Assembly (NCBI GenBank): GCA_018675685.1
Contig: JABGXP010000014.1
Coordinates: 81,288 to 145,287, forward strand
Reading direction: 5' to 3'
From: a bacterium
GTDB lineage: Bacteria; Patescibacteriota; Minisyncoccia; Moranbacterales; DUUL01
DNA: 64,000 bases
Shown here: positions 45,297 to 62,876 of the stretch, one piece after another
Layout: the number at the start of each line of letters is the position of its first letter
How positions within the stretch are numbered: the first letter of the stretch is position 1
The notes under the pieces: generated by a model
What the model saw: the letters and a program-made list of their open reading frames with translations, nothing else
What the model was told of the DNA's origin: nothing
Databases searched by the model: none
Translations under genes and position numbers: made by a program

Positions 45297-45447
45297 TATA
45301 TTGTTTTTGCGTTTGAGGTTTGAGACGAAAAGGATGAGCATGCTTTTTGTCTGAAGTCTTAAAAGAGGCTTATTTAATTATTTTCTTATTTTCTTTTGGT
45401 GTGTTTGTAAAACCGACGTTAAATAAATATCCCCGTCGATCAAGTAA

Positions 45448-45720
<273 letters not shown>

Positions 45721-45831
45721 ATATTGTTTACTTTAGACTTCTTTCTGCTGAGCAGACAGCTAGCAGAAGAGGTCCTCTAGTGAATATTATTTAGAAGTTA
45801 TTAATTTAAACAGACTAAAAGATCGAAAATT

Positions 45832-46332
45832 ATGGAAGAGTTAATTAAAACATTTCACATTGACTATAAGATGCTAGCAGCGCAGATGGTTAATTTTGCT
45901 ATTGTTATTGCTGTTCTTTATAAATTCGCGTACAAACCACTTTTAGTAAAAATGGATGAAAGAAGTGATACGATTGAAAAAGGCTTGAATGACGCAAGAG
46001 AAGCTGGAGAAAAACTAGAAGCTGCAGCAGAAGAAAGGGAAAAGCAGATTCAAGAAGCAAAAAAAGAAGCAAGACAAATTATCGACCAGGCGCAAAGACA
46101 ATCTGACAGAAACAAAGAAGAAGCAGTTGGTCAAGCAAGAATTGATGCTCAAAAGGTTGTTGACCAAGCTAAGAAGCAAATTCAAGCCCAGAAAGAAAAA
46201 ATGGTAGTTGAAATCAAGAGAGAAGTTGGAATGCTCGTTACCCTTGCAGTAAAGAAGGTTATTAATGAGAAATTAGACAGCAAGAAAGACGAAGAGTTGA
46301 TTGAGAAAGCGATTGCGGATGTGAAAAACTAA
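45832..46332 (+). CDS. atpF: F0F1 ATP synthase subunit b
   Basis: N-terminal TM followed by a long charged helix (ERE.I..A..EA). Confidence 0.75.
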   Translation: MEELIKTFHIDYKMLAAQMVNFAIVIAVLYKFAYKPLLVKMDERSDTIEKGLNDAREAGEKLEAAAEEREKQIQEAKKEARQIIDQAQRQSDRNKEEAVGQARIDAQKVVDQAKKQIQAQKEKMVVEIKREVGMLVTLAVKKVINEKLDSKKDEELIEKAIADVKN

Positions 46333-46344
46333 TCAAAAGAACAC

Positions 46345-46752
46345 ATGAATATTTCAAACAATCAATATGCCGAACTTGCCAAATTCATTCTTGATGAATC
46401 GAAAGACAAGAAAGCAGCCAAGGAAGGTGTTGTTAAATTAGCAAAACTAATCGTTGAAAATCGTGATCAAGGTGGATTTGAGAGGATTGTAAAACAGTTT
46501 AACAATTTAATAGAGAAAGAGGCCGGAGTTGTAAATGTGAACATTGTCAGCGCAAAAGAACTATCCAGCAAACAAGAGAAGCTTTTACAGGAGTCTATTG
46601 CAAAGAAATTGGACATCAAAAAAGATTTAATTGAAATTTTCAAGGAAGTTGATGAATCATTAATAGGCGGGATTAGTATTCAGATTGGAGCGAAAGTTAT
46701 AGATGGAAGTTTGAGGGCTAAAATAGAGAAATTGGAAAATTCACTACTATAA
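46345..46752 (+). CDS. atpH: F0F1 ATP synthase subunit delta (OSCP), short form
   Basis: Position between atpF and atpA, and a C-terminal OSCP-like sequence (IDESLIGGISIQIGAKVIDGSLRAKIEKL). Confidence 0.6.
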   Translation: MNISNNQYAELAKFILDESKDKKAAKEGVVKLAKLIVENRDQGGFERIVKQFNNLIEKEAGVVNVNIVSAKELSSKQEKLLQESIAKKLDIKKDLIEIFKEVDESLIGGISIQIGAKVIDGSLRAKIEKLENSLL

Positions 46753-46785
46753 ACTATAAACTAACTTATAAATATCCTAAAAGAT

Positions 46786-48369
46786 ATGAACAAAGATTAT
46801 ATAATTGACGAACTTAAGAAACAAATTGCGAATGTTGATACCTCTTCAGAACTGAAAAGTGTCGGGAAAGTATTAGAAGTTGGAGACGGAGTGGCAAAAG
46901 TCGCTGGTCTTGATGATCTGATGATGTCTGAGATGGTTAAATTCGACACAGAAGATGGAGAAAACCTATTCGGTGTTGCATTGAACCTTGAAGATGGAAG
47001 AATTGGTGTAATCATCATTGGAGAAGTTTCGAGGGTAAGAGAGGGAATGAAGGTTTCTGCGACTGGTAAAATTCTTTCAATCCCGGTTTCTGATGAAATG
47101 ATTGGACGAGTTGTTGATCCAATCGGAACGATTATTGATGATGGTGATCAAATCAAAAAAGGGGAGTATTATCCAATCGAAAAAATTGCACCTGGTGTGA
47201 TGACTCGAGCTGGCGTTAGCCAACCTTTGCAAACCGGAATCAAATCAATTGATTCAATGATTCCAATTGGACGAGGACAAAGAGAATTGATTATTGGGGA
47301 TCGACAAACTGGAAAAACCGCAATTGCAATTGATACAATTATCAATCAAAAAGGTGAAGATGTGATTTGTATCTATGTTGCGATTGGACAAAAGAAATCA
47401 AAAATTGCTCAAATTGTTGAAAAGTTGAAAGAAAATGACGCAATGGAGCATACAATTATTGTTGTTGCTGGTTCTTCTGATCCTGCTGCATTTTCATTCA
47501 TTTCTCCATATTCTGGATGCGCAATTGGTGAATATTTCATGGAACAAGGAAAAGATGTACTAATTGTGTTTGATGATCTTTCTAAGCATGCTTGGGCATA
47601 TCGACAACTTTCATTACTTCTAAAGAGACCGCCAGGGCGAGAAGCATATCCTGGAGATGTTTTCTATTTACATTCAAGGCTTCTAGAGAGAAGTGCTAAA
47701 TTGAACAAAGAGAATGGCGGTGCTTCAATGACTGCTTTGCCAATCATTGAAACTCAAGCTGGAGATATTTCGGCATTTATTCCTACAAATGTGATTTCAA
47801 TTACAGATGGTCAAATTTTCTTGGAGTCAGATTTGTTTTATCAAGGAATTCGGCCAGCTATTAATGTCGGTCTTTCAGTTTCACGTGTAGGCTCTGCTGC
47901 TCAAACAAAAGCGATGAAAAAAGTTGCTGGTAAGATCAAGCTGGAATTAGCACAATTTCGAGAATTGGAAGCTTTCACAAAATTTGGTTCAGAATTGGAT
48001 GATCGAACAAAGCAAAAGATTGATCGAGGATACCGAACAATTGAAATTCTAAAACAAGCTCAATATGCTTCAATGCTAATGGAGGATCAAGTTGCAATCA
48101 TGTGGGCTTTGACAAAGGGATATATCGATGAAGTGGAAGTGGAAAAAGTAAAGGAGTGGGAAGCAAAGTTCAGTGAATATATGCAAAAAACTGGCAAAGA
48201 CGCTTTGAGGGCAATTAAAGAGGAAAAGAATATTTCTGAAGAACTCGAAGAGAAGCTAGTTAGCTTAACTGAGGATTTCAATAGTACCTGGAAGGAAGAG
48301 AATGAAGAGGAACAAGAAAAAGAAGAAAAGGAGGAGAAGAAAGAGGTACAGATGAAAAAGGCCGAGTAA
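46786..48369 (+). CDS. atpA: F0F1 ATP synthase subunit alpha
   Basis: GDRQTGKTAIAIDTIINQ Walker A and the full alpha-subunit architecture. Acidic K/E C-terminal extension. Confidence 0.95.
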   Translation: MNKDYIIDELKKQIANVDTSSELKSVGKVLEVGDGVAKVAGLDDLMMSEMVKFDTEDGENLFGVALNLEDGRIGVIIIGEVSRVREGMKVSATGKILSIPVSDEMIGRVVDPIGTIIDDGDQIKKGEYYPIEKIAPGVMTRAGVSQPLQTGIKSIDSMIPIGRGQRELIIGDRQTGKTAIAIDTIINQKGEDVICIYVAIGQKKSKIAQIVEKLKENDAMEHTIIVVAGSSDPAAFSFISPYSGCAIGEYFMEQGKDVLIVFDDLSKHAWAYRQLSLLLKRPPGREAYPGDVFYLHSRLLERSAKLNKENGGASMTALPIIETQAGDISAFIPTNVISITDGQIFLESDLFYQGIRPAINVGLSVSRVGSAAQTKAMKKVAGKIKLELAQFRELEAFTKFGSELDDRTKQKIDRGYRTIEILKQAQYASMLMEDQVAIMWALTKGYIDEVEVEKVKEWEAKFSEYMQKTGKDALRAIKEEKNISEELEEKLVSLTEDFNSTWKEENEEEQEKEEKEEKKEVQMKKAE

Positions 48370-48402
48370 TAATAAAAGAATAATTTAATTTCCAGCAATA
48401 AT

Positions 48403-49368
48403 ATGGCAGGTAATTCAAAGGAAATACAACGAAGAATAAAGTCTATTGGAAATACTCGAAAAATTACTCGGGCTATGGAGATGGTTTCAGCATCCAAGAT
48501 GAAAAAAGAGATTAATCGGGTGTTGCAAGTCAGGGAATATGCACGAGCTTCTTGGGGTGTTTTGACAAACCTTTCGAAGGCTTTTGATCGACTGGAGCAC
48601 GGTCTCTTGGAGGTGCGTGAAGTTAAACGAGTTTTGATAGTGCTAATCACTTCAAACAGAGGTTTATGCGGAGCATATAATGCTCAAATAATTAAAAAAC
48701 TTTCCCAGCAAGTGAAAAATCCGAAATTGTTGAAAATTAACAGAATCGGGAATGAGAAAATTGGTTCAACGATAAAAGATGAAGATTTGGAGTTTGATTA
48801 TATTGCTGTTGGAAAAAAAGGTTTTAATTATCTTGCAAGGCGAGACAAGGATGTAGTTGCAAGTTTTGAAGATTTCAATTATTCGCCTTCAGTTGAGGCA
48901 GTCAGGTCACTGGCTAGAATTGTGATTGATGACTATGTAAGTGGAAAATATGATAAAGTTGTGGTTGCGTATACTGATTTTAAGAATACAGCCGTTCAAG
49001 TGCCAAAACTGAGACAGCTTTTGCCAATTTCAAAGATTGATATCGAAAAGCAAATCGAAGAAATGAACAGAGAAGATGATGTTAAAGATCTAAAAGAGAA
49101 AGAAGAGATTATTGATTACAAGATTGAACCAAAGCCGATCAAAGTTCTTCAGCAACTTTTGCCAAGGTTAGTGGAGGTGCAACTGTACCATGCAGTGCTT
49201 GAATCAAACGCTTCAAAAGAATCAGCAAGAATGTTGGCAATGAAGAATGCCTCTGATGCGGCAGCTGATATGATAACAGAATTGCAATATTCATATAATC
49301 AGATTCGTCAGACAGGAATTACGCAAGAGATTGCGGAAATTACTTCTGGTCGAGCTGCATTGGAATAA
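48403..49368 (+). CDS. atpG: F0F1 ATP synthase subunit gamma
   Basis: N-terminal IKSIGNTRKITRAMEMVSASKM and a C-terminal helix. Confidence 0.85.
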   Translation: MAGNSKEIQRRIKSIGNTRKITRAMEMVSASKMKKEINRVLQVREYARASWGVLTNLSKAFDRLEHGLLEVREVKRVLIVLITSNRGLCGAYNAQIIKKLSQQVKNPKLLKINRIGNEKIGSTIKDEDLEFDYIAVGKKGFNYLARRDKDVVASFEDFNYSPSVEAVRSLARIVIDDYVSGKYDKVVVAYTDFKNTAVQVPKLRQLLPISKIDIEKQIEEMNREDDVKDLKEKEEIIDYKIEPKPIKVLQQLLPRLVEVQLYHAVLESNASKESARMLAMKNASDAAADMITELQYSYNQIRQTGITQEIAEITSGRAALE

Positions 49369-49390
49369 AAAAGGACATAATTAATTTTAG

Positions 49391-50809
<1,419 letters not shown>

Positions 50810-50832
50810 CAAAGGAATTATTAATAGTGTAA

Positions 50833-51285
50833 ATGATGAAAACCATTAAACTTAAAGTTACTACACCAGAGCGAGTTGTTTTGGAGACCCAGGTGGAACA
50901 AATAACACTTTCAACGCAGGTTGGTAAGGTTACAATCTTGCCAAATCATGTGCCGCTCCTCAGCATTATCGTTCCTGGAATAATTGAAACCAAACAAGAG
51001 GGTCAAATAGAGCATATGGCCACCTCAGGAGGTTTTTTGGAGTTTCATGATAATGAGCTCACAATCTTGGCCGACACCGCTGAGAGGGCTGATGAGATTG
51101 ATCTGGAGCGTGCCCAAGAGGCAAGAGAGAAGGCAGCAGAAATGAAAAAAGATCAACAAATGCACATAGATGAAAATCAATATGCAATTGTTGTTTCTGG
51201 AATTGAAAAACAATTAGCAAGAATTAGGGTTGCAAAGAAATACCGACCGAAAGGACTCGGCAATAAAGGAGTGCCAAGAAATTAG
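50833..51285 (+). CDS. atpC: F0F1 ATP synthase subunit epsilon
   Basis: N-terminal beta-sandwich (LKVTTPERVVLETQVEQITL) and a C-terminal helical hairpin. Confidence 0.8.
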   Translation: MMKTIKLKVTTPERVVLETQVEQITLSTQVGKVTILPNHVPLLSIIVPGIIETKQEGQIEHMATSGGFLEFHDNELTILADTAERADEIDLERAQEAREKAAEMKKDQQMHIDENQYAIVVSGIEKQLARIRVAKKYRPKGLGNKGVPRN

Positions 51286-51374: not shown

Positions 51375-51570
51375 AACAAGGGTGGCCTTTCGTGGTATAA
51401 TGTTTGCGTATGTAATTGAAAATAAATACATACAAAAAAAGAGACGTGTTTGACTCCCGATTTAACGGAGGAAAACACAGAACCATAGATCCCGTTCATT
51501 GGAAGCGGGTTTTATGGTATATGGATATTAAATAGCAAAGAGAGTGTACAGTGCATTCTCTTTTTGCAAT
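51375..51570 (+). ncRNA. candidate small RNA: extended -10 promoter plus terminator hairpin with no ORF between them
   Basis: TTAACA-17-TGgTATAAT at 51375-51400. About 130-160 nt downstream is the hairpin agagagtg-tacag-tgcattctct followed by ttttt (51536-51570). No credible ORF lies between them, and the next gene is on the opposite strand. Confidence 0.25.
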
Positions 51571-51646: not shown

Positions 51647-52606
51647 TCAAGTTGTGCTTTTTCTTCCTAGCATTTCAAGGAGAGAGGGGAGTGCAAAGTG
51701 AACGACAATTCCAATTCCAATAGCTGAAAGTGGCACCCAGTAGAGCGCGTGACAATTTTCAAGGAGATACCAAGTTGCAACGAGAGCCGTTACTCCTGCA
51801 GTATCAAACTTCCAACCATAATCGCTGAGTTCTACATGTTTCCAGGTATTAGCAATAAGAGCTATTGCCAAAACGATAAGCGCTAGTACCCACGGCAACT
51901 TTTTTGTATTTTCGCAAGTAGTTGATGTCCCCTTAACATCTCCAGCATTTTCTGATCCTGCTCCTTCCTCGGAAATTATTGGTGTGTTTTCGCCGAGAAC
52001 TTCAGCCTCTTCTTCTGGTAAGTTCTCTGTTAGACCAAGCACGCGTCCTTGGTCAGTAAGAATATCTTCCTCGGTTTCATCTTCTGTTGCTACGCGTGAT
52101 TCTATTTCAAATTCAATATCAAATTTTGCTTCTAAGTTTTGATATTCATTACCAGCATCTTCATCGAATTTTATTTTAATGCGATATTCTTTGCCTTTTG
52201 TAGCGCTCAGACGGTCCATGTATAACTCTTCTTCATCTGCCTTTTTCAAGTCATAGCGGTCCCCTGGTCCGCCAATCCGATAACTCCCATTCTCAACCCT
52301 GATAACATATAGTTTCAATTCTTCTGCTAATTTCTTGTCACCCTTAAGGTCAATAGTAAAAAATAAATTAATATCATCTGTTTCGCTGTCATTTTCCACT
52401 CTAATAGTTTTCTTTTCTTGCCAACCAGGCAGGATGTTAGTGAAATCGAAAATAGCACTTTCATTTAAATTTGTTCCCACTGGATATTCAACATCGATTT
52501 TGTCATCTGCCCAAGCAATGTTTGTGAAAAAAACTCCACTAAAAAGCAAGCTTATTGTAAGTAAGAAGAATTTTTTCAGTCCAAATTTTATACCATCTTT
52601 TTTCAT
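51647..52606 (-). CDS. secreted TasA/camelysin-like-fold protein with a C-terminal double-TM anchor; last gene of the sipW operon
   Basis: Signal peptide (FTNIAWA/DD). A beta-rich domain with a TasA-like NILPGWQEKKTIRVEN motif. An acidic linker and two C-terminal TM helices. Its start overlaps the stop of the upstream gene by 4 nt. Confidence 0.4.
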   Translation of the reverse strand: MKKDGIKFGLKKFFLLTISLLFSGVFFTNIAWADDKIDVEYPVGTNLNESAIFDFTNILPGWQEKKTIRVENDSETDDINLFFTIDLKGDKKLAEELKLYVIRVENGSYRIGGPGDRYDLKKADEEELYMDRLSATKGKEYRIKIKFDEDAGNEYQNLEAKFDIEFEIESRVATEDETEEDILTDQGRVLGLTENLPEEEAEVLGENTPIISEEGAGSENAGDVKGTSTTCENTKKLPWVLALIVLAIALIANTWKHVELSDYGWKFDTAGVTALVATWYLLENCHALYWVPLSAIGIGIVVHFALPSLLEMLGRKSTT

Positions 52607-54948
52607 GCCAATATGTTATTGATAATTAACATTACTATTTCTCCCAGATCATTCTCTTCCTCTTTTTTTTCTTCTTCCTTTAACTCTTCTTTTTCTTCTG
52701 ACTCTTCTTCTTTAATCGCTTCTAGTTCTACTTGTTCCTCTTTGGGTTCCTCAGATGTTTCGTTTTCTGCTTCCTCTGCTTTCTCGTCTTTTAATTCAGG
52801 GGTTTCATTGTTAGCTGATTCTTCTTCTACACTTTCCAATTTCTCTTCTTCTGGGGCTACCTCCTCTGCAATTTCTGGTATCGAGTCTTCTTCTTTGGAG
52901 TTTTCATTATTTAAATCAGAATCCTTGTCGTCAGTTTGGTTTTCTTCACTCTCAATAGAAGACTCTTCGCCCGAATCTTCTTCAGGTAGTTCAACTTGCT
53001 CAGTATCGGTTTGCTTTATGTTTTCTTCTTGGGCCTGATCAGTTTCTCCTTTAGAAGTATCCTCCCCTTTAATGGCATCGAGGAAAACTTCATCGCCATC
53101 TTCCTTTTTTTCATCTTCGTCTTCTTCTTGCGATTCCAAAGCAATTTCTGCTAGGATTTCGCGATAAACATCTTTGGGCATTTCATCATCATTTTCATCA
53201 TCTAAAAGACCCAAGTATTCCAAGAAAACTCCCTTGCAAAATGGATGTTCTTCCTCTCTGTCGAAATCTCTTTTGTCGAAACATTCTTCCAGAACTATTG
53301 CTTGATAATAATCTTTTTCATCGCTAGAGAGTTTGTTTTCTTTGCCTAAGCGAGGATTTGGGTCAACAAAAGGACCAACACCATCTGGGATTCGTTGAAA
53401 CGCTTTATTTTCAAAGAAATCGCTTGGCTTTTGATAATCATAGTGATCATTTTCAATTTCAACACTGCCATAACGAGCAATCAGATATAATTCACCGTTG
53501 TTGTTATTATCAAAGAATTCAGCTGGATTAAATTGTCCGTCTGCATACACAACTAGATCATCGCCAGCTGGAACAATGGTCTCACCACTATCTGAAGGGT
53601 TGTCATCATTGTCGCCGTTGGAAGTCGAAATAATAATTTCATCTCCGTCTTTATTGGCAATGATCCAACCAGCCACATCCCAGTCCTTGTCATCATTATT
53701 CCAAAGTTCAATCACTTCACCATTTGGCATTGGCGCTACGTCACTTCCAGATGGATTTGCCACAAACTCATTTAAAACTATTGGCAAGAGGTTTTGTCCA
53801 CCAGGCGTGCCATAGTTATTGATTTCATCTTCCCAAAAGTCAGTATCATTAGCAGCTGGGTGATTTGTCGTGAACCAATTTTTAGCATCCGTGCCATCTC
53901 CTGGGAGAGGCATTCTTTGCATTGAACGATAATCCGAACCATTTTCTCCTGCTGGCCAAGCTGAATCTTTCCAGGCGACGTCAACTGTTGTACCAGCTTT
54001 GTTTGCAAGTAAAAGTCCCTCGCCGTCATTGTGGAGACTCACATTTGATTTATGGGTGATTCCTTTATCAGAGTCTAGATTGCTGGAGAGGCCAATAGCT
54101 GTTTCATTCCATTTTTTTCTCAAGATCAAGAAATATCCATTAGCTTTGATGCTATATCCATGTGGAATTTCTAGGTGTGCCATTGCCCCTGCGCCATGGC
54201 CAAGACCATGAACATTCCAATTTGAAAGGTCAATCTCTTTGTCTGTCATGTTGCGAAGTTCAATCCATTCGTCAGAACTTCCTTCTTCTGATCCCATCCA
54301 CATAATCTCGTTGATAACAACAGCTTGGCTAGCTGACCACTGGTCGGAAGTAACACGGTTACTCGTAGTTTCAATATCAGAAAAGCCATCAGCTCCATGG
54401 GTCGAACCTGTTTGCCAAGCTTCAAATTTAAAATCAAAATCACAAACTTTATCAGCCAGGGAAGGATTGCCATCAGTTAATTTAACGGTAAAGTTCCAAG
54501 TTTCTTTTGAAATATTTTGTGTACTCGAAAAAAGATAGTCAGCTAATTTTTGATAGGTATTTGTTTGATCGTCTTTGATTTCCAATTTTTCACAAAGATC
54601 TAAGTCGCCAGAAAGATTTGTAGTTGAAACTTTGTAATTAAAATCCAGTATCCCGAGTTTTGAAAGCGAAACAGATTTAGAAGTTTCTGTGGAGGGTGAA
54701 ACTTTGGGAGAGAAACTGTCGTCGGAAGGAATGGAAAAGTCTAGAGTGGAAGCGCCCAGAGTGTTATTTGCGCCCTCTTCTTTGTCTGAAAAACTAGCAT
54801 TAGTGCCCCCAGGAAAATTCAGTGAAAAAGAAAAAACTGATATCAAAAGACAAATTCCCACTTTTTTGAGCGAGCTTAGGATTCTTCTTGTGATAACTGA
54901 TTTATATCTCCTTTTCTTCTTTGACATCGTCTTTTTTAGTATTATCAT
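52603..54948 (-). CDS. large secreted protein with a SipW-cognate signal peptide, two lamin-tail (LTD) domains and a highly acidic repetitive C-terminal region
   Basis: N-terminus GGTNASFSDKEEGANNTLGASTLDFSI (SipW-cognate class). LTD signatures VVINEIMWMGSEEGSSDEWIELRN ... DLSNW and IVLNEFVANPSG ... EVIELWN ... DVAGW. The C-terminal roughly 300 aa are D/E/K low-complexity. Confidence 0.65.
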   Translation of the reverse strand: MIILKKTMSKKKRRYKSVITRRILSSLKKVGICLLISVFSFSLNFPGGTNASFSDKEEGANNTLGASTLDFSIPSDDSFSPKVSPSTETSKSVSLSKLGILDFNYKVSTTNLSGDLDLCEKLEIKDDQTNTYQKLADYLFSSTQNISKETWNFTVKLTDGNPSLADKVCDFDFKFEAWQTGSTHGADGFSDIETTSNRVTSDQWSASQAVVINEIMWMGSEEGSSDEWIELRNMTDKEIDLSNWNVHGLGHGAGAMAHLEIPHGYSIKANGYFLILRKKWNETAIGLSSNLDSDKGITHKSNVSLHNDGEGLLLANKAGTTVDVAWKDSAWPAGENGSDYRSMQRMPLPGDGTDAKNWFTTNHPAANDTDFWEDEINNYGTPGGQNLLPIVLNEFVANPSGSDVAPMPNGEVIELWNNDDKDWDVAGWIIANKDGDEIIISTSNGDNDDNPSDSGETIVPAGDDLVVYADGQFNPAEFFDNNNNGELYLIARYGSVEIENDHYDYQKPSDFFENKAFQRIPDGVGPFVDPNPRLGKENKLSSDEKDYYQAIVLEECFDKRDFDREEEHPFCKGVFLEYLGLLDDENDDEMPKDVYREILAEIALESQEEDEDEKKEDGDEVFLDAIKGEDTSKGETDQAQEENIKQTDTEQVELPEEDSGEESSIESEENQTDDKDSDLNNENSKEEDSIPEIAEEVAPEEEKLESVEEESANNETPELKDEKAEEAENETSEEPKEEQVELEAIKEEESEEKEELKEEEKKEEENDLGEIVMLIINNILA

Positions 54949-55495
54949 TCTCTAATTCATCTGCTTTGCGTTTTTTTGTTCTTCTTCGATAATCAAGTTT
55001 TTTCAATATTTCTTTCTTGATGGTCAAAATTTCATCATAGATAATAATAACTGCGGGAACAATGATGATTAGAACAAAACCAATCGGTTTTTGCGCAGCA
55101 TTCACGGCATATCCTAAAAATGGAACAGAGAAGAGCACTTTTCCAATAACTTCATTTTTTGAGACTTGTTTGTGGTCTTTCGCATTATTAGCATCTCCTT
55201 TAGTGATGTATTTTTCGATATCGTCATTTTTTTCTATGGCTGTGATTCTATGTGTGGTCGGTGTTTTCATTTTGGAGGACTCTCCAAAAGTGATCACATC
55301 ACCAACTTGATAATTTTCAGCTGGTTTTGTGGCTACTATGCTTCCTGTGCGAATTTTTGGTTCCATTGAGCCAGAAAGCACGATAAATGATTTATAACCA
55401 CCTTTTATGGGAATAGCAGACAGAACTAAAAAAACGGCAATAATTGCAATTGCAAGGATAAATAGGTAATAGAAAGTTTTGAAGATTTTTTTCAT
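54902..55495 (-). CDS. sipW: signal peptidase I, SipW-type (archaeal/eukaryotic-like S26B)
   Basis: N-terminal TM followed by VLSGSMEPKIRTGSIV (catalytic Ser in SGSMEP) and the conserved His region (KGDANNAKDH). C-terminal TM and basic tail. Confidence 0.8.
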   Translation of the reverse strand: MKKIFKTFYYLFILAIAIIAVFLVLSAIPIKGGYKSFIVLSGSMEPKIRTGSIVATKPAENYQVGDVITFGESSKMKTPTTHRITAIEKNDDIEKYITKGDANNAKDHKQVSKNEVIGKVLFSVPFLGYAVNAAQKPIGFVLIIIVPAVIIIYDEILTIKKEILKKLDYRRRTKKRKADELENDNTKKDDVKEEKEI

Positions 55496-55590
55496 TAGAG
55501 GTGTGTTTCTTGGTAGTTGCTTGTTTAAAAACAGGAATAGTTAACTTATTGACTGCCCGAGAGTTCAGGCAGTCTAAAGTCAACTAACTA

Positions 55591-56643
55591 TTAGTAAGAA
55601 CTAACTATTAGTAAGTCAGTATCTTCATACCAAATCAAACCAGTCTCCCAGAGCCATTTGTCCATTTGAGTCCATTGAATAGCTCCATCATTCCATGCAG
55701 TCTTTGGGAGCAACCAAACCTTAACATCTTTCATGTCTTTTCCAAGCTCCATATCTCCGGTGAAATTGATATCACCACTTCCGTTTGATATGCTTTCTCC
55801 TAGGTATGTATCAACATTAGTACCACCATCATATCCAGCAGCTAATACATACGTTGTGTTAGGCAAAGCAACTTTTCCGTCAAATTCAAAATCAAAAGTT
55901 GGATTTTTAACTTCATAGGTTAGTGTGCCTTTGAAATCATCATCTTGAAGCACGTTCCAAGGTCCAGAAGTGTCTTTATTTTCTAGCCAAGCCTCCCCAT
56001 GAAGTTGTTCAGCATAGAGCTCAATGTTGAAAGTCATTTGATCACCTTGATATTCGTTGCCAGCGTTTTCATTCATGTGATAGCTTTGTCTAACTTGCAT
56101 GTAGCCATTAGCAGGAATCATTCCTAAGAACACTTTTTTAGCACCAGCATAGACATCATCAAGAGTTTTACCTTCTGAATCAAGGTAGAGGGTTTGTTCC
56201 CAGATAGGAGTATTACTTGAATCGTATACTTCAACGTATAGATCATAAATAATAACACTAGAGAGATCATTATTGTCAGTTGCACCACCCCAAGAACAAG
56301 CATCATTACTCCAATTACCACCTTGGCCATCACATTCAGGCTCTGATACTACACCTGTTATTTCTACAATTTCGGTGATATCCTTCCAAACATTAACAGG
56401 GTTTGCACTCTCTCCCTCATTTTCAATTTCAAAGTTGATATAATCGATATAATCTGGTTTCATGTCATCCATGGCGAAGCTTTCACTCCAAGGATTCATG
56501 TTATTTACTGAAATATCAATTGTTCCAGCAGTGAAAGTGTTGCCGACTGATTTTTCTTCATCTGAAAAATAGGCTACCGTACCACCGATTGCTACTGCTG
56601 CAACGGCTGTGATAACCATTAAACTTTTTAAAATCTTTTTCAT
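55591..56643 (-). CDS. TasA/camelysin-family protein with a SipW-cognate signal peptide
   Basis: N-terminus MKKILKSLMVITAVAAVAIGGTVAYFSDEEKSVGNTFTAGTIDIS is the textbook SipW-cognate class. The mature domain is beta-rich with a TasA-like core. Confidence 0.75.
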   Translation of the reverse strand: MKKILKSLMVITAVAAVAIGGTVAYFSDEEKSVGNTFTAGTIDISVNNMNPWSESFAMDDMKPDYIDYINFEIENEGESANPVNVWKDITEIVEITGVVSEPECDGQGGNWSNDACSWGGATDNNDLSSVIIYDLYVEVYDSSNTPIWEQTLYLDSEGKTLDDVYAGAKKVFLGMIPANGYMQVRQSYHMNENAGNEYQGDQMTFNIELYAEQLHGEAWLENKDTSGPWNVLQDDDFKGTLTYEVKNPTFDFEFDGKVALPNTTYVLAAGYDGGTNVDTYLGESISNGSGDINFTGDMELGKDMKDVKVWLLPKTAWNDGAIQWTQMDKWLWETGLIWYEDTDLLIVSSY

Positions 56644-57225
56644 TTTTTCTTGTTAAATTTTTATACTAAATTTCTCCCTCTAGCAATTTAGTTAGTTTGG
56701 TTTAAGCTCTAATAGTTTAAACCAGAGAACCGTGCACAAATGTTTTTGGGTAGCTTATTCCTTCCTAGTGTTAATATTTAGTGTTTTATCTTAAACTTTG
56801 TTCATTTAACTAGATTTAAGGTAACAAAAAAATCAGAAACTTTTTGCTCCGTTGTTTTTTAGGGTTTTTTGATTTTGTTTTTCTTTCTTTTCAGGAATGC
56901 TCTTTCCATATCTGTTATTTAATCATTTAACAAAAATAATAAACAGACTCTTTCACAAACTAGCAACCAGGACCCCTCTTTTAATAACGAGTATAGCAAG
57001 TCATTTTCAAACGTCAAATGGGATTAAACTTATAACCCTGTTTTTAGGGCAAAAAACAGGGGGATTCCTTTTTCCGAAAAAATGTTAAATCTAATTGACA
57101 TTTCCTGGTATTTATGTTCAAATTAATGAGCAGAAAATTATCTGGTAACAGTTTTTTTACAAAAAGCACGAAAAAGCAGTTAAACAAAAAACCTAGACTA
57201 GGCTATTTCCAAAGGAGAAAGGTTC

Positions 57226-57741
57226 ATGAAAAATAGAAGAGAAGAAAGAAGATTGTTGAGAGAAGAAGGTCTCCCAATTGAAAGAATGAGAATCATCGAC
57301 ACAGCAGAGACGTTGGATTTGCAAATCAAAGAATTTCTGGGTTGTCATGTATCCGTGAGTGGTTGTGGTTCTTCGAAAGAGCAGACACTGGATCTCTCAT
57401 TGGTGAGAGAGTTTGTCGGAGCAATTCCGGTTGCCAACGTTTTGTTCGAAGCACCTCGCTTTGCATGGACCAATGAGGAAGATGATATTCCTGTCAGGGC
57501 GATTGTTCTGGAAGTTTTGGCTGGTAGCAAAGGAGATGACCTTCTGAATGGCATTTTCGATGATGTTGGCATGATCTTTGAGGATATTCGTTTTTTGAAC
57601 TTTCTCTCAGTTATCCAAGCGACGTTGTCGCCAGTGTTTCCAGTTTGTGAGCTGGAGGTTTTGCTGAAAATGATTAATGATTTCAAAAAAAGTCCGGTGA
57701 TCCAAAAATCAGACATGGGGGATGAAAATATCAATGAATAG
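57226..57741 (+). CDS. hypothetical protein in a GC-richer island
   Basis: A 171-aa ORF with an AAGGAGAAAGG RBS. GC is clearly above the local background. No motif recognised. Confidence 0.3.
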   Translation: MKNRREERRLLREEGLPIERMRIIDTAETLDLQIKEFLGCHVSVSGCGSSKEQTLDLSLVREFVGAIPVANVLFEAPRFAWTNEEDDIPVRAIVLEVLAGSKGDDLLNGIFDDVGMIFEDIRFLNFLSVIQATLSPVFPVCELEVLLKMINDFKKSPVIQKSDMGDENINE

Positions 57742-57971
57742 CTCCTTTTGTCGAATAGTTCGTTCTATTGAATGTTTGCGAGGTGTCTAGTGGAAAATTC
57801 CGCTGGACACCTTTTTTTGAATAATTTTTGTCGATTTTCATTGACAAAAGTAACAAAATCATGTATGGTTATTGGAATGATCCAAATCTCTTTTGAGTCA
57901 AGGTCATTTGCTAGTTCTTCGTCAATTTGGAATTTTAGAAAAAAACTTTTTAATTTTTTTGGAGGTAAGTC

Positions 57972-58367
57972 TTGAAAGAAGAGCATGGAAGGATAAATGT
58001 TTTAATCGTGGATAGCGAGGAAGATGATGCTATAATTCTCGATATCAGAAAGTTGATCATCAATTTACATCAAAAACAAGGGAGCAAAAAAGAGCTAGCT
58101 ATTAGCTTAATTGATAGCCAAGTGAATCTTTTTGCACATCATTTAGAGTTTGATTTTCAAATTGTTATTCTGTTAAACAACAATGAAAAAAGCGATTTGA
58201 TTTTTCAATATCTAAATGGGTTTTTTTCTGGCAAGGCAAAGTTTATTGTCATTGGCCCTGAAATTGAAACTGCGGCTAAGCACGCGAAGTTTGAAGGTGC
58301 TTGGGTTGTTTCAAACACCTTTAATGAAGTGATCCCACAGTTCGAAACATTGATGGGAGAGAAGTAG
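57972..58367 (+). CDS. response-regulator receiver (REC)-like single-domain protein, possibly atypical
   Basis: INVLIVDSEEDDAII at the beta1/acidic pocket position, LIDSQ (candidate phospho-acceptor region) and FIVIGPE ... K late in the domain. A single-domain CheY-like fold is inferred. Confidence 0.35.
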   Translation: MKEEHGRINVLIVDSEEDDAIILDIRKLIINLHQKQGSKKELAISLIDSQVNLFAHHLEFDFQIVILLNNNEKSDLIFQYLNGFFSGKAKFIVIGPEIETAAKHAKFEGAWVVSNTFNEVIPQFETLMGEK

Positions 58368-58426
58368 TTTAAACGGTCAATCAGCAAAGTAAACTGCAAA
58401 GGTTTACTGAAGATGGGGAGGATGCT

Positions 58427-58603
58427 ATGGACAGATATCTTGACCCAGAAATACGACAAAGGCGCAGAAACAAACTAGTAAGTGGCAAGTGCACTGTTTG
58501 TTCAAATGACGCTGCAATTCCTTGGAAGCAACATCAATATTGTTACGACTGCTGGGTAATTGCAGAGGTTTATTTCATGAAAGAACTGCGGAATGAAAAA
58601 TAA
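58427..58603 (+). CDS. 58-aa zinc-ribbon mini-protein (CTVC ... CYDC), not in the ORF track
   Basis: GGGGAGGA RBS 5-12 nt upstream of the ATG. Sequence MDRYLDPEIRQRRRNKLVSGKCTVCSNDAAIPWKQHQYCYDCWVIAEVYFMKELRNEK. Confidence 0.3.
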   Translation: MDRYLDPEIRQRRRNKLVSGKCTVCSNDAAIPWKQHQYCYDCWVIAEVYFMKELRNEK

Positions 58604-58653
58604 GGAGAGCGAAAGATTAATTTAACCTATCAATCAGCAAAGGTGGTAAGAAG

Positions 58654-59619
58654 ATGGAGAAAAGAAAAAAAGGAGATAAAAAACCAGAGAATGTAAGAAT
58701 CATTTTTGTTTCTGCTGTCTGCGGAAAAGAACCAGAGCTCATGACCAGTTTTCTTGAAGAGTTTGATTCTTTCGCGAAGAAGCAGGACAAAAAAACTTTT
58801 GTCTTGATTTTCTGCGGAAAAGCAAGCGACCCAAGCAAGCTTTTGCGAAAGGCTGACATTCTGGTAACTGATCCCGTGATCACTTGGGGTGGAAGAAAGA
58901 CATTCCTTCCTCAGCTAGGTTCTGCCAACGATGAGCGCGAGAATGGAAAACGCAGAATCATTATCGTTCTTCCAAGAAAGAAGGATGAAAGAAATAAATT
59001 CTTTGCTGACCCCCGGTGTTTTGCAAAGACATTGATGCCAAATGTGGAGCATCCTCGGAAAGTTGAAAAAATCTCGCATATTCCTTTGAATGGCAAGACT
59101 CTGGAAAAAATCGAAGATGAAGTCATTTTCGAACTACCAGAACATTGTTCAGCCCCGAGAGTGATGATCGCACTTTCTAATTCTTTTGAAATGATTGAAG
59201 CGAAAAAACTGAAGGAGACAATTGAGGCACAATTTGCCCTTGAGGTGATGGTGGTTCCTTGGAAAAGCTTCCGAGCTTCAATGGCCGCCGAAGCGGATGT
59301 TTTGATTACTAGCACTGTTCAACAGCTCGATAGACTCCCAACACCTGCAAGAGTTCCCACTAATAGGCACAATGGTAGAAACAACAAGTTTGTCGAATCA
59401 AAAGTTCACACCTATCAAAACTTGGCGCATGTTGACATGTCCAAGAAGGCTAATCCAGCCCTGCAGGTTGTTCTTTTGGGAAGGGAAGTGACAGCGTTCA
59501 TTGTTCGTTATGCGGACATCCTATCCGGCTTCTTAGAGTTTCCGCCAACAAAGGCTTCTTTGTCAGCAGCTTTACAAAGAGCAGCTTTGAAAAGCGAAAA
59601 ATCAGTTCTTATCAATTAG
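58654..59619 (+). CDS. hypothetical protein with an N-terminal Rossmann-like alpha/beta segment, in the GC-richer island
   Basis: A 321-aa ORF with an AGGTGG RBS. Alternating beta-strand/helix pattern (VRIIFVSAV ... FVLIFCGKASD ... ADILVTDP). No family recognised. Confidence 0.35.
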   Translation: MEKRKKGDKKPENVRIIFVSAVCGKEPELMTSFLEEFDSFAKKQDKKTFVLIFCGKASDPSKLLRKADILVTDPVITWGGRKTFLPQLGSANDERENGKRRIIIVLPRKKDERNKFFADPRCFAKTLMPNVEHPRKVEKISHIPLNGKTLEKIEDEVIFELPEHCSAPRVMIALSNSFEMIEAKKLKETIEAQFALEVMVVPWKSFRASMAAEADVLITSTVQQLDRLPTPARVPTNRHNGRNNKFVESKVHTYQNLAHVDMSKKANPALQVVLLGREVTAFIVRYADILSGFLEFPPTKASLSAALQRAALKSEKSVLIN

Positions 59620-59898
59620 GAAAATATCAAGTACATCAGGCTTAATTCTAAAGCAAGTTCTAAAACTAAAGTTTCAAAAAATGATTGAGGCATGCAGGAA
59701 ATTTTTCCTTCGCATGCCTCTTTTTGTCAATTAAAGTTGACGTTTTAGCTAGAATATGCTAAAAAGAAATATTATACTTTTCAAAAAGAGATTACTTTTA
59801 TTTTCAATGAATATTTCGATTTGCTAGTCGCCGGGAAGCAAATTGATTTTGTAAGAAGATTTGTTAGAATGGTTTTGCATTACAAGTAATATGACTTT

Positions 59899-60507
59899 AT
59901 GGAGCTTAAAGAGTATTTAAAAGTTTTGAAGAAATACAAAACAACCTTTGTTGTCATCTGGGTTGGAGCGATTGCTTTTGGATTGATTGCAGCGTCTCTT
60001 GTTCCACAGAGATACAAAACGACTTTTTCAATTGATATCACAAGAGATACGCAGGAAGAAGGAACTCAGGAATATGACTTTGATCAATTCTATCGTTTAG
60101 AAGCAGACGATCGATTCGGCAGGACAATTGTAGAATGGTTTAGTGATGGTGCAATTGTAAACAACATTCACGCTGTCGCAAGAAGCGTGGAAGAGAATTT
60201 TGAAAATGAAGAACTCGAAACGAAATTTAAAGCAAAAAAGCTCGCAAATAGCTATTTGAGGGTTAGCTTCTTGGTTTCAGAGAAAAAAGAAGTAAAACCA
60301 CTTTTTCTGGGAGTGAAAAAAGTTCTAAATGAGAAAACCAAGGAGTTTAATGGCGGTTTCAATAAACAAAGCAGCTTTAAGCTCATTTTTAATGGACCAA
60401 CTATTGCAAATGCTACAATTCCACTTACCCCACTACTTATCAGTTTGATTGGCAGTGGTTTTTTCTTGGCAGCATTCGGGATTATGTTTAGAAAGTATCT
60501 AGAATAA
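59899..60507 (+). CDS. Wzz/Cap-type polysaccharide chain-length determinant protein (short form)
   Basis: N-terminal LKEYLKVLKKYKTTFVVIWVGAIAFGLIAASL (Wzz N-terminal TM motif), a periplasmic segment and a C-terminal TM (LISLIGSGFFLAAFGIMF). Confidence 0.5.
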   Translation: MELKEYLKVLKKYKTTFVVIWVGAIAFGLIAASLVPQRYKTTFSIDITRDTQEEGTQEYDFDQFYRLEADDRFGRTIVEWFSDGAIVNNIHAVARSVEENFENEELETKFKAKKLANSYLRVSFLVSEKKEVKPLFLGVKKVLNEKTKEFNGGFNKQSSFKLIFNGPTIANATIPLTPLLISLIGSGFFLAAFGIMFRKYLE

Positions 60508-60515
60508 GAATCATT

Positions 60516-61664
60516 ATGAAAATAGGGATTGATATTAGATGTTTAGCAGAAGGGAATCGAACTGGTGTTGAGGAATACACGATTAGCTTTTTGAAGCGTC
60601 TTTTTGAGCAGGATTCGAAGAACGAATACCTGCTTTTTATTAACTCTTTTAAGAAAGTTAAAGAAGACCTTTCCTGGTTAGAGGAGTATCCAAACGTTGA
60701 AATGAGAAACTTTGGTTTTCCTAATAAACTTTTAAACTTTGCAATGTGGTTTTTGCGTTGGCCAAAAATTGACCTTTTGCTTGGAGGAGTTGACCTTTTT
60801 TTTGCACCAAACATTTCTTTCATAGCTCTTTCTGATAAATGTAAGTTCACTCTCACTGTTCACGATCTTTCATTTGAAAGATTCCCCGAACACTTTTCCG
60901 CTAAAAGAAGATTATGGCACTATGTTGTGAATCCAAGATTGCTTTGCAAGAGAGCTGACAAGATCTTAGCTGTATCAAATTCAACAAAAGATGACCTGAC
61001 GATGCTTTATCGAATCAGTGAAAGTAAAATAGAAGTAGCTTATCCTCGTTTGGAGACTAAAAATTTCACAGAACCCAATATTTCTGGAGACAAAACAATG
61101 AGAATGATCAGAGATTATAGCTTGCCTGATGAATTTGTCTTGTATTTAGGAACAATTGAGCCAAGGAAAAACATTATCTCACTTGTAAAAGCATTTGAGC
61201 ATTTGAAAAAAAGCGGCAAAGTATATAAAAACTTAAAACTGGTGATTGCGGGAAGAGTTGGGTGGTCGTATGAAAGAATAATTAAGGCCGTGGAATCAAG
61301 CCCTAATAAAAAAGATATTCTGTTTACTGGCTTTGTGCATGACTCTGATAAAGCTATTTTATATAAATTAGCAAAGGTTTTTGTCTATCCATCTTTCTTT
61401 GAAGGCTTTGGTTTTCCTCCGGTAGAGGCAATGGCAAGTGGTGTTCCTGTGATTACTTCAAATTGTTCTTCTATCCCAGAGGTCGTGCAAGATGCCGCAG
61501 TATTAATTGATCCATATCGGCCAGCTGAAATTTCACTAGCGATCAAACTTCTTTTGGAGGACAAAATATTGTATAATGATTTTATCAAGAAAGGAAGAAT
61601 GCACGTTGAAAAAATTGAAAAGCGATATTTGGAAGAGAATATTCTTTCTTATCTCAAGATATAG
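60516..61664 (+). CDS. GT4-family glycosyltransferase (RfaG-like)
   Basis: GT-B fold and EX7E region FFEGFGFPPVEAMASGVPVITS. Confidence 0.75.
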   Translation: MKIGIDIRCLAEGNRTGVEEYTISFLKRLFEQDSKNEYLLFINSFKKVKEDLSWLEEYPNVEMRNFGFPNKLLNFAMWFLRWPKIDLLLGGVDLFFAPNISFIALSDKCKFTLTVHDLSFERFPEHFSAKRRLWHYVVNPRLLCKRADKILAVSNSTKDDLTMLYRISESKIEVAYPRLETKNFTEPNISGDKTMRMIRDYSLPDEFVLYLGTIEPRKNIISLVKAFEHLKKSGKVYKNLKLVIAGRVGWSYERIIKAVESSPNKKDILFTGFVHDSDKAILYKLAKVFVYPSFFEGFGFPPVEAMASGVPVITSNCSSIPEVVQDAAVLIDPYRPAEISLAIKLLLEDKILYNDFIKKGRMHVEKIEKRYLEENILSYLKI

Positions 61665-61739
61665 CAATTGTTTATGGTGATGGCGAGAAAAAACTCAAGC
61701 TTGAAACAAAAGATATAAAAAAGTTAGGAAAAACAAAAG

Positions 61740-62876
61740 ATGAAAAAAATTGGAATCGATGCTCGTTTTTATGGACCAACAGGGAAGGGTCTTGGAAGGT
61801 ATGCGCAGAAACTAGTTGAATACTTGGAAATGGTTGATGGAGGGAATAAGGAACGACAATATGTTGTTTTTTTGAGGAAAGATAATTTTGATCTGTATCA
61901 ACCAAAACATGAGAACTTTACTAAGGTACTGGCTGATTTTAGCTGGTATTCTTTTGCGGAACAATTAGGGTTTCCGCTTTTTTTATATGCTCAGAAGCTT
62001 GATTTGGTGCATTTTTGTCATTTCAATGTGCCACTTTTATATTGTAAGCAATTTGTTGTTACGATTCATGATTTAATCTTATTCCACCACCCGACTGTTA
62101 GGAATACGACTTTGAATAAATATTTCTATTTTTTGAAACTATTTGCATACAGGCTGGCGATCAGAAGGGCAGCAAAAAAGGCAAGGAAGATTATTGCAGT
62201 TTCGGAGTTCACAAGAAGCGATATTGTAGCCAATCTTGGTGTTACTAAAGAGCAAGTTGAAATGACCTATGAAGGCTGTGAATACCAATGTTTTTTGAAC
62301 AGTAAATGCGATGATGATGTTTTAACAAAGTATGGTATAATGAAACCATATCTGCTTTATGTCGGCAATGCTTATCCACACAAGAATCTAGAGAGACTAG
62401 TGGCGGTGTTTAGCAGACTTAGAAATAAAAATGATAAACTCCAATTAGTACTTGTTGGAGGAAAGGATTTTTTCTATGAAAATTTGGAAAAATTTGTTTT
62501 TGATGGGGGGTATGAGGGAATAATTTTCCCTGGCTATGTTCCAGATCGAGAACTTGATGTTTTGTATAAAAGAGCAGAACTCTATGTCTTTCCTTCTCTT
62601 TATGAAGGGTTCGGCTTACCACCACTAGAAGCTCTAGCTAAGAGCACAATGGTAGTCTCATCTTGCAGGACTTCTATGCCAGAAATTTTGCAAGACGCTG
62701 TTAGTTATTTTGACCCAGAAGATCTCGATTCAATGGAAAAATCAATTTTATTTGCCTTAGAAAACAAGCCCCCAAAAAAGGAGCTTCCCAAAAAAGCAAT
62801 TAAGGTTTTGGCAAAATTTTCTTGGAGAAAGATGGCGGAAGAGACATTAGATATATATAAAAAAGTTTTAAGGTAG
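61740..62876 (+). CDS. GT4-family glycosyltransferase
   Basis: EX7E region LYEGFGLPPLEALAKSTMVVSS and an N-terminal GT-B domain. Confidence 0.75.
   Translation: MKKIGIDARFYGPTGKGLGRYAQKLVEYLEMVDGGNKERQYVVFLRKDNFDLYQPKHENFTKVLADFSWYSFAEQLGFPLFLYAQKLDLVHFCHFNVPLLYCKQFVVTIHDLILFHHPTVRNTTLNKYFYFLKLFAYRLAIRRAAKKARKIIAVSEFTRSDIVANLGVTKEQVEMTYEGCEYQCFLNSKCDDDVLTKYGIMKPYLLYVGNAYPHKNLERLVAVFSRLRNKNDKLQLVLVGGKDFFYENLEKFVFDGGYEGIIFPGYVPDRELDVLYKRAELYVFPSLYEGFGLPPLEALAKSTMVVSSCRTSMPEILQDAVSYFDPEDLDSMEKSILFALENKPPKKELPKKAIKVLAKFSWRKMAEETLDIYKKVLR

Follow-up and report, generated by a model that had tools for sequence, protein, structure and literature searches.

Positions 51647-56643 of a 64-kb stretch of the Patescibacteria contig JABGXP010000014.1 (contig positions 81,288 to 145,287, hereafter the window) hold four tightly packed open reading frames (ORFs) on the minus strand. 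They encode a TasA-family protein, a SipW-like signal peptidase, a large protein with lamin-tail domains (LTDs), and a membrane-anchored TasA-like protein. Together they form a candidate operon for an extracellular fibre, and are referred to as g1 to g4 in the direction of reading.

55591..56643, minus strand: g1, TasA-family protein, presumed major (shaft) subunit, 350 amino acids (aa)
54902..55495, minus strand: g2, SipW-like (S26B, archaeal/endoplasmic reticulum-type) signal peptidase I, 197 aa
52603..54948, minus strand: g3, pilin-like N-domain, two LTDs and an acidic tail, presumed tip/initiator, 781 aa as the longest ORF
51647..52606, minus strand: g4, membrane-anchored TasA-like protein, presumed terminator/anchor, 319 aa

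All four ORFs are present at the coordinates given in an earlier note made from the DNA letters, and the peptides quoted there were all recovered in the translations. Public gene calls start g3 at an ATG 21 nucleotides (nt) downstream (from 54927), which yields a protein of 774 aa, not 781. The two overlaps described earlier are affected differently: that of 4 nt between g3 and g4 holds, while that of 47 nt between g2 and g3 exists only with the longest ORF and shortens to 26 nt with the 774-aa g3. The g1 and g2 genes do not overlap and are separated by a 95-nt spacer. The window has a G+C content of ca. 36%, and contains neither tRNA genes nor Rfam families. Identical copies of its proteins are encoded on a 242-kb metagenomic scaffold, so the window represents real assembled sequence. 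The closest homologues with an organism name belong to Candidatus Moranbacteria and other Patescibacteria.

The g1 protein is composed of a signal peptide, a conserved N-terminal segment, and two β-domains.

56572..56643, minus strand: g1 signal peptide, aa 1-24, with the SipW cleavage predicted between GGTVA and YFSD by alignment with mature TasA
56506..56571, minus strand: putative g1 donor-strand segment, aa 25-46, YFSDEEKSVGNTFTAGTIDISV, from conservation and disorder in the model
56005..56514, minus strand: g1 TasA-like jelly-roll domain, aa ~44-213
55621..55995, minus strand: g1 C-terminal β-sandwich, aa 217-341, with a fold like that of Cu,Zn superoxide dismutase (SOD) and not an enzyme

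It matches PF12389 (Peptidase_M73/TasA) with 55.4 bits (cutoff 22.5) and the SipW-cognate signal TIGR04088 with 34.3 (cutoff 19), and its earlier assignment to the TasA/camelysin family with such a signal is hence borne out. The best PF12389 stretch covers residues 8-77 only. Against NF046066, the equivalog of Bacillus subtilis TasA, g1 scores 18.5 bits, far below the cutoff of 450; judged by its sequence, it is a distant member of the TasA family and not a TasA orthologue. The family gave 479 hits. The cleavage site, which would fall after GGTVA, was placed with reference to mature TasA, which begins AFNDIKS, and hydropathy agrees with the signal peptide. The AlphaFold2 model, built with 118 sequences, has a predicted local distance difference test (pLDDT) score of 84.6. 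In this model, residues 1-38 are disordered (pLDDT <50) and β-domains span residues ~44-213 and 217-341. The first of these is predicted to have a TasA-like jelly-roll fold, and the best structural matches of g1 are filament subunits. The g1 family profile found no relevant chain among PDB sequences at a significant E-value, and a whole-chain Foldseek search with the g1 model was unsuccessful. As to enzymatic activities, g1 has two histidines only, so an HExxH-type zinc-protease motif is not possible and a camelysin-type metalloprotease is ruled out. The region 217-341 has no histidine, which rules out superoxide dismutase activity of the C-terminal domain.

The g2 protein scores 124.8 bits against TIGR02228, the archaeal-type signal peptidase I (cutoff 51.85), and 23.9 against the LepB-type TIGR02227, below the cutoff of 47. 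The peptidase is therefore of the SipW-type S26B class, as the earlier note had it, and not of the LepB type. Its score against the Bacillus SipW equivalog NF046067 is 126.7, below the cutoff of 190. The motifs SGSMEP (41-46), HRI (82-84), and GDAN (100-103) provide Ser/His (plus Asp) in place of a Ser/Lys dyad, and we take them to hold the catalytic residues by analogy with S26B peptidases in general. Hydrophobic segments at residues 3-34 and 131-161 form an N-terminal and a C-terminal membrane segment. No further SipW-type substrate or LepB-like ORF was found within the 64-kb window, which leaves the rest of the genome uncovered. The predicted cleavage sites of g1 and g3 have Phe at P2′, a residue that is reported to make TasA a poor LepB substrate (PMC10269814).

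The g3 protein combines a TasA-like domain with two LTDs and a low-complexity tail.

54358..54795, minus strand: g3 putative donor-strand motif and compact TasA-like domain, aa 45-190 of the 774-aa form, from profile comparisons
53977..54336, minus strand: g3 LTD 1, aa 198-317 of the 774-aa form, PF00932 match
53476..53781, minus strand: g3 LTD 2, PF00932 match of 37.1 bits alone (cutoff 34.3)
52606..53367, minus strand: g3 acidic low-complexity tail, 254 aa, 38% D+E, from composition analysis

Both LTDs claimed for g3 are recognized by PF00932 (83.3 bits overall, cutoff 34.3). The D/E/K-rich tail is also present and has no Pfam match; its length had been put at about 300 aa and was measured as 254 aa. 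The predicted signal peptide cleavage falls between GGTNA and SFSD. As for the SipW-cognate signal claimed for g3, the motif is visible in the protein and nine of 21 orthologues match TIGR04088 at E <= 0.01, but the profile score of g3 itself is sub-threshold. Likewise, g3 has no PF12389 match of its own, and nine of 21 orthologues match that family at E <= 0.01.

A profile was built from the alignment of 14 orthologous N-domains from related loci. By hhalign, it matches the g1 family with a probability of 98.4% in the region of the signal and donor strand, and the g4-type family with 97.2% along 104 columns in the core of the domain. Its sole PDB sequence matches are the TasA entries 8aur and 5of1 (E 0.026 and 0.07), and this alignment falls at the mature TasA N-terminus, FNDIKSKDATFASGTLDLS. 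Within the domain, Cys112 and Cys162 are conserved. The earlier description of g3 as a cargo thus falls short, because a TasA-like pilin domain that includes a donor-strand motif takes up its first ~190 residues. With the N-terminal fragment, a word-indexed search for homologues returned one protein only, and an exhaustive HMMER search with the N-domain returned 808 cluster representatives (50% identity, E <= 1e-3), nearly all of which are proteins of 400-1200 aa that start with the domain or have it close to their N-terminus. In 67 of 74 sampled family members an LTD directly follows the pilin-like domain; hence their fusion is the rule and not a local oddity. Behind the LTD come variable modules, for example laminin-G, CBM96, and F5/8 type C, which are of the lectin or carbohydrate-binding module kind. 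None of the four proteins matches a TapA family in Pfam or NCBIfam (E <= 1).

The g4 protein has no match in Pfam or NCBIfam, and its description relies on structure prediction.

52091..52507, minus strand: g4 ectodomain, aa 34-172, after an ordinary AxA signal peptide (cleavage predicted between NIAWA and DD), with model strands at 37-172
51653..51910, minus strand: g4 C-terminal membrane helices, aa 233-318, after an acidic disordered linker, from AlphaFold2 and hydropathy

The AlphaFold2 model, built with 35 sequences, has a pLDDT of 75.8 and consists of a signal helix, a β-domain at 37-172, a disordered acidic linker (pLDDT <50), and three C-terminal helices (237-260, 265-282, and 290-318). 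The double transmembrane anchor proposed earlier agrees with the two strongly hydrophobic segments seen by hydropathy, and the model has three helices there. A Foldseek search of the PDB ranks the TasA fibre 8aur_A first (E 5.7e-6, probability 1.0); the next matches, to CfaB, the Sulfolobus 0406 thread, Pyrobaculum bundling pili (ABP), and Pyrodictium cannulae, are likewise to donor-strand filaments. The TasA-like motifs noticed in g4 are hence matched by its predicted structure and by the fold search, and NILPGW, AGNEYQ, and FDIEF are common to g4, g1, and TasA. In a direct hhalign comparison the g1 and g4 families align weakly (43.7% probability) and over the AGNEYQG...FDI strands only, so their kinship rests on the bridge through g3 and on structure. 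We found 35 homologues of g4, and those with names are from Moranbacteria.

In other lineages, g4-type proteins have an added fn3-like module and end with a membrane helix and a basic tail. At two related loci (L006 and L008) they have an LVATG/LPATG sorting signal at the end, in place of a plain membrane anchor or in addition to it, and a sortase gene (PF04203, ca. 90 bits) directly follows, at L006:14959-15600 and L008:16831-17475. These membrane-helix or sortase endings support a cell-proximal role of g4-type proteins. Neither a sortase gene nor an LPXTG signal occurs in the window operon, and L006 and L008 are the only relatives with a sortase gene behind the g4-type gene. A sortase pilus and a chaperone-usher pilus were both rejected for the window, which has no such genes.

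We then compared the subunits for the strand that links TasA fibres. In these fibres, the residues that come first behind the SipW cut (28-38) were shown by experiment to be the donor strand, which enters the following subunit (PMC9674648), and TapA, which has the same donor motif, presumably gives TasA its first strand (PMC9674648, PMC10151520). Segment 25-46 of g1 corresponds to TasA residues 28-47, and is the densest run of invariant or near-invariant residues among 118 homologues. A donor-strand-equivalent segment is present both in g1, where GGTVA is followed by YFSDEEKSVGNTFTAGTIDIS, and in g3, where GGTNA is followed by SFSDKEEGANNTLGASTLDFS; the two motifs align with mature TasA from residue 28/29. 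In both proteins this N-terminal segment is a putative donor strand placed directly after the predicted SipW cleavage site. Of 118 g1-family sequences, 112 have the donor motif F-x-D-x-E, as do all 14 g3-family N-domains, and it is missing from all 50 g4-type proteins (0/35 close and 0/15 distant). In these g4-type proteins, which have an ordinary AxA signal peptide, the segment before the L-P-G motif is also 14-18 residues shorter than in g1. By these donor and acceptor features, g1 would therefore both donate and accept a strand, g3 would donate one and bear large modules, and g4, fixed to the membrane, would only accept.

We read the four genes as an operon for a cell-attached TasA-type extracellular fibre that assembles by chaperone-free donor-strand complementation, with g4 as anchor, g1 as shaft, and g3 as tip/initiator, and assign this reading a probability of roughly 65%. 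It draws on the gene content, family membership, and predicted folds of the four proteins, on the presence or absence of the donor motif, and on synteny. In the proposed assembly, g1 and g3 would be exported by Sec, and g2 would cut both just before the conserved F-S-D-x-E...G-T-(I/L)-D segment, thereby freeing the N-terminal donor strand. As donor strand and acceptor jelly-roll are both found in g1, this protein could polymerize head to tail into the shaft, which the additional SOD-like β-sandwich would decorate. The strand of g3, whose compact TasA-like domain is taken to contain a disulfide, would complement a g1 subunit, and g3 would sit distally as initiator and adhesin, like TapA or TafC (a haloarchaeal fimbrial tip protein described below). 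Since g4 has an acceptor domain without a donor and is membrane-fixed, it could take only the last free g1 strand, and would in this way terminate and anchor the fibre, like haloarchaeal TafF. The final order would be membrane, g4, n copies of g1, and g3, and the LTDs and acidic tail would lie farthest from the cell. A TapA-like role had previously been suggested for the membrane-anchored partner g4. We correct that part of the earlier proposal: a nucleating role fits g3, and the role of terminator or anchor fits g4, which has no donor strand.

The four genes could instead encode no filament at all, that is, monomeric surface or secreted proteins such as a camelysin-like protease, an S-layer-like coat, or adhesins, which merely share a SipW-type export signal. 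The name of PF12389 does indeed come from a putative metalloprotease, what Pfam recognizes in g1 is mostly the signal peptide and first strands, and the g1 profile is without a significant PDB chain. The histidine count of g1 nevertheless leaves no place for the protease motif, g1 and g4 resemble filament subunits most closely in structure, and the conserved N-terminal segment corresponds to the donor strand of TasA. In addition, a trio of paralogues, one with donor and acceptor, one with donor, acceptor, and adhesin modules, and one with acceptor and anchor, is what a polar fibre requires. We consider the absence of a filament very improbable.

The conservation of the gene order was inspected in a synteny scan that used one genome per GTDB species and gave 35 loci, 32 of them of the Patescibacteria type. 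Eight of the 32 end right after g1, which leaves 24 evaluable loci. The order kept in Patescibacteria is g1-(paralog)-sipW-g3-g4. A sipW gene comes after g1 in all 24, often behind a second TasA paralogue. A g3-type gene follows sipW in 22 of the 24, the other two having LTD proteins of a different build, and a g4-type gene stands directly after g3, with an overlap or a short spacer, in 19 of 22 evaluable loci. The genes are thus strongly co-conserved in relatives. The earlier note had named three results that could overturn it, concerning the TasA and SipW profiles, the class of the peptidase, and co-conservation, and all three came out in favour of its reading.

The gene order also bears on whether the fibre would be attached to the cell. 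TasA fibres are matrix components, with TapA as a sub-stoichiometric nucleator (PMC9674648, PMC10151520), and the window operon could encode a free matrix fibre as in Bacillus biofilms, which g3 only nucleates, while g4 is a separate surface protein that shares the fold. The three loci without g4 among the 22 are in line with this, and work on haloarchaeal fimbriae also envisages "non-finalised" released chains (PMC11821415). We regard a free fibre as unlikely, since g4-type genes are found directly behind g3 in 19 of 22 loci (with a 4-nt overlap in the window) and g4-type proteins have an acceptor fold without a donor strand, always combined with a membrane or sortase anchor. This combination is hard to explain unless g4 binds a donor strand at the cell surface.

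The same parts could also be arranged otherwise, with g4 as a surface nucleator from which the fibre grows distally in the manner of curli and CsgB, or with g3 decorating the shaft. The N-terminus of g1 is free in the monomer model, as it is for the self-polymerizing Mth60 fimbrin (PMC11821415), and the 104-column alignment of the g3 N-domain with the acceptor core of g4 agrees with a place of g3 along the shaft. TasA, however, is reported to need complementation before it extends its own strand (PMC9674648), and the bulky, variable C-terminal modules of g3-type proteins are typical of tip adhesins. We give these arrangements little weight, although nothing in the present data discriminates between orders of assembly.

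Several points count against the cell-attached fibre with g3 at its tip. All folds, and the fibre itself, are predictions. The SipW-cognate profile TIGR04088 gives g3 only 14.3, below the cutoff of 19, and the N-terminus of the g4 ectodomain and the linker are of low confidence in the model. By sequence, the N-domain of g3 is homologous to the acceptor core of g4; hence g3 may also accept a strand and could sit within the shaft and not only at the tip. The absence of g4 from three of 22 evaluable loci means that an anchor is not obligatory. Finally, bacterial LTDs are without established function, and attachment to a host or partner is speculation.

The nearest bacterial precedent is the tapA-sipW-tasA operon of B. 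subtilis, which shares the way of working. The gene order differs, with the shaft gene first in the window; a SOD-like C-terminal domain is added in g1, g3 includes LTDs and a TasA-like domain of its own, and g1 and g2 fall below the equivalog cutoffs given above (18.5 against 450 and 126.7 against 190). We know of no equivalent in the Bacillus operon for a third, membrane-anchored, donor-less paralogue of the g4 type.

The Tat-fimbriae (tafi) of haloarchaea, named after twin-arginine translocation (Tat), are even closer in their working. In the tafi model, TafC is the tip/initiator, TafA the shaft, TafF the membrane anchor and terminator, and TafD the signal peptidase; TafC has a pilin-like N-domain and a laminin-G module, and TafF has a pilin-like domain and a C-terminal membrane helix (PMC11821415, PMC12337348). 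TafC thus resembles g3, TafA g1, TafF g4, and TafD g2, and the window architecture, with tip, shaft, membrane-anchored pilin-like terminator, and dedicated peptidase in one cluster, matches that of tafi. The match is one of working and not of family membership. Taf family models matched none of the four window proteins (E <= 1), nor g3 when it was scanned again, and the TafC model NF052521 is matched by only two of 21 g3 orthologues (E 7e-13). Two g3 orthologues carry a Laminin_G_3 module, and the TafC matches probably come from it. Tafi are, moreover, archaeal and Tat-dependent, while the signals in the window are Sec-type with a SipW motif and c-region. A twin-arginine signal is found neither in g1 (MKKILKS...) nor in g3, whose N-region is Lys/Arg-rich and whose adjacent arginines stand outside an S/T-R-R-x-F-L-K context. 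The tip module also differs, being an LTD in g3 and laminin-G in tafi, and no counterparts of TafB, TafE, and TafG were found in the operon. The earlier statement that no described system could be named with an LTD cargo and a TasA-type fibre subunit therefore holds in part: an LTD-bearing tip was not found in the searched literature, but tafi work by the same logic. With this precedent, the window architecture is a variant and not without parallel.

Other systems share fewer features. ABP, Sulfolobus threads, and Pyrodictium cannulae (0406 filament, CanA) are also chaperone-free donor-strand filaments with TasA-like or related jelly-roll subunits, but their matches to g4 are much weaker than that of TasA and their accessory genes differ. 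[quoted passage not shown] Chaperone-usher pili (type 1/P and CFA/I) share the polar logic of tip adhesin, shaft, and terminator, and CfaB is among the Foldseek matches of g4; no chaperone or usher is encoded in the window, and no homology is implied. The acceptor-only subunit of chaperone-usher pili is the tip adhesin. The strand logic is hence inverted in the window, where the acceptor-only subunit is the membrane-anchored g4. The organism is presumably monoderm. The SipW-BsaA matrix polymer of Clostridium perfringens (TIGR04090; PMC11580942) likewise has a SipW-dependent substrate encoded beside sipW. A BsaA-type polymer was rejected for the window, as g1 scores 15.8 against the family cutoff of 60. 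In the literature searched, the only link found between TasA or SipW and Patescibacteria, the candidate phyla radiation (CPR), or LTDs was a one-sentence mention of PF12389 occurring in Patescibacteria (PMC9245690), and no link between LTDs and TasA-type fibres was found.

The spacer between g1 and g2 contains a conserved RNA structure.

55527..55586, minus strand: stable hairpin with a U-run in the g1-g2 spacer, from folding against shuffled sequences

The hairpin has a predicted free energy of -29.7 kcal/mol (z -5.5), and none of 200 shuffles folds as well. A comparable hairpin of differing sequence lies at the same place in all seven relatives tested (L010:6705-6835, L006:11025-11145, L033:11046-11128, L018:11076-11160, L022:7381-7473, L015:11010-11110, and L002:6674-6735; z -3.0 to -7.1). 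It is probably an attenuator or a 3′ mRNA stabilizer that sets subunit stoichiometry, and would probably keep g1 in excess over g2-g4. A strong conserved hairpin after g1 fits a major subunit made in excess.

We class the system as a widespread variant of the TasA/tafi donor-strand fibre, distinguished by an LTD-bearing tip subunit and an acceptor-only anchor. The operon is conserved over many Patescibacteria lineages, and would give a TasA-type fibre with a built-in polarity code, in which the shaft subunit donates and accepts, the tip subunit donates and carries adhesin modules, and the anchored base subunit only accepts. It joins Bacillus TasA/TapA, haloarchaeal tafi, and CPR surface biology, which have so far been treated separately, and suggests that bacteria and archaea have in common an old way of building donor-strand pili, with tip, shaft, and anchor subunits and a dedicated S26B peptidase. 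For the bacterial LTD, which is poorly understood, this would point to a specific setting, at the tip or neck of a pilus.

An attached life on other cells is generally assumed for Patescibacteria, and to our knowledge type IV pili are the main surface structure described for them. A bolder and rather doubtful proposal is that CPR bacteria widely have a second class of appendage besides these, namely a Sec/SipW-dependent, chaperone-free donor-strand pilus held in the membrane by an acceptor-only pilin, or at the wall by sortase, with an adhesin tip consisting of an LTD neck and interchangeable binding modules, by which the ultra-small cells would attach to a host or partner.

Some related loci have additional features. 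Many relatives have an extra TasA paralogue of ca. 600 aa between g1 and sipW (L004:11265-13079, L005:2810-4654, L014:11283-13097, L017:11204-13036, L021:5183-7039, and L026:11141-12970), which the window does not have. The L004 paralogue, the one that was scanned, has a SipW-type signal and Cys-rich repeats (MopE and Dicty_CTDC matches). At L013:11134-13056, a single 640-aa ORF comprises a SipW-like peptidase and an LTD, and this locus has no separate g3-type gene; the joined ORF is either a fusion or an assembly or frameshift artefact. Four loci with a Patescibacteria-type operon and 38-48% identity to g1 (L015, L016, L020, and L026) come from metagenome-assembled genomes titled Bdellovibrionales, Pseudomonadales, or Gammaproteobacteria, and these bins are probably mislabelled or contaminated. 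Distant TasA-like genes stand beside sipW-type peptidase genes in two Dehalococcoidales of the Chloroflexota (L034 and L035) and in an archaeon of the Thermoplasmata (L036), and no g3- or g4-type genes are detectable at these three loci.

Two further candidate elements flank the operon.

56990..57017, minus strand: promoter-like site, TTGACG-16-TATACT with TG, found by consensus scan only, 10/12 matches
51477..51495, minus strand: terminator-like hairpin downstream of g4, found by consensus scan only

The candidate promoter lies ca. 350 nt upstream of g1. Next to g4, a complete F-type ATP synthase operon (a, c, b, delta, alpha, gamma, beta, epsilon) occupies 44460-51285 on the plus strand, and this neighbourhood is not kept in relatives. 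Several relatives instead have ORFs upstream of g1 that by eye resemble the ribosomal proteins L10 and L7/L12 (rplJ-rplL). Divergent from the operon, at 57226-62876 on the plus strand, three ORFs of 171, 131, and 321 aa without Pfam match are followed by genes for a Wzz-like protein and two GT4 glycosyltransferases, with a DUF4012 protein encoded beyond the window; the genes at 57226-62876 may be a surface-polysaccharide locus beside the fibre genes.

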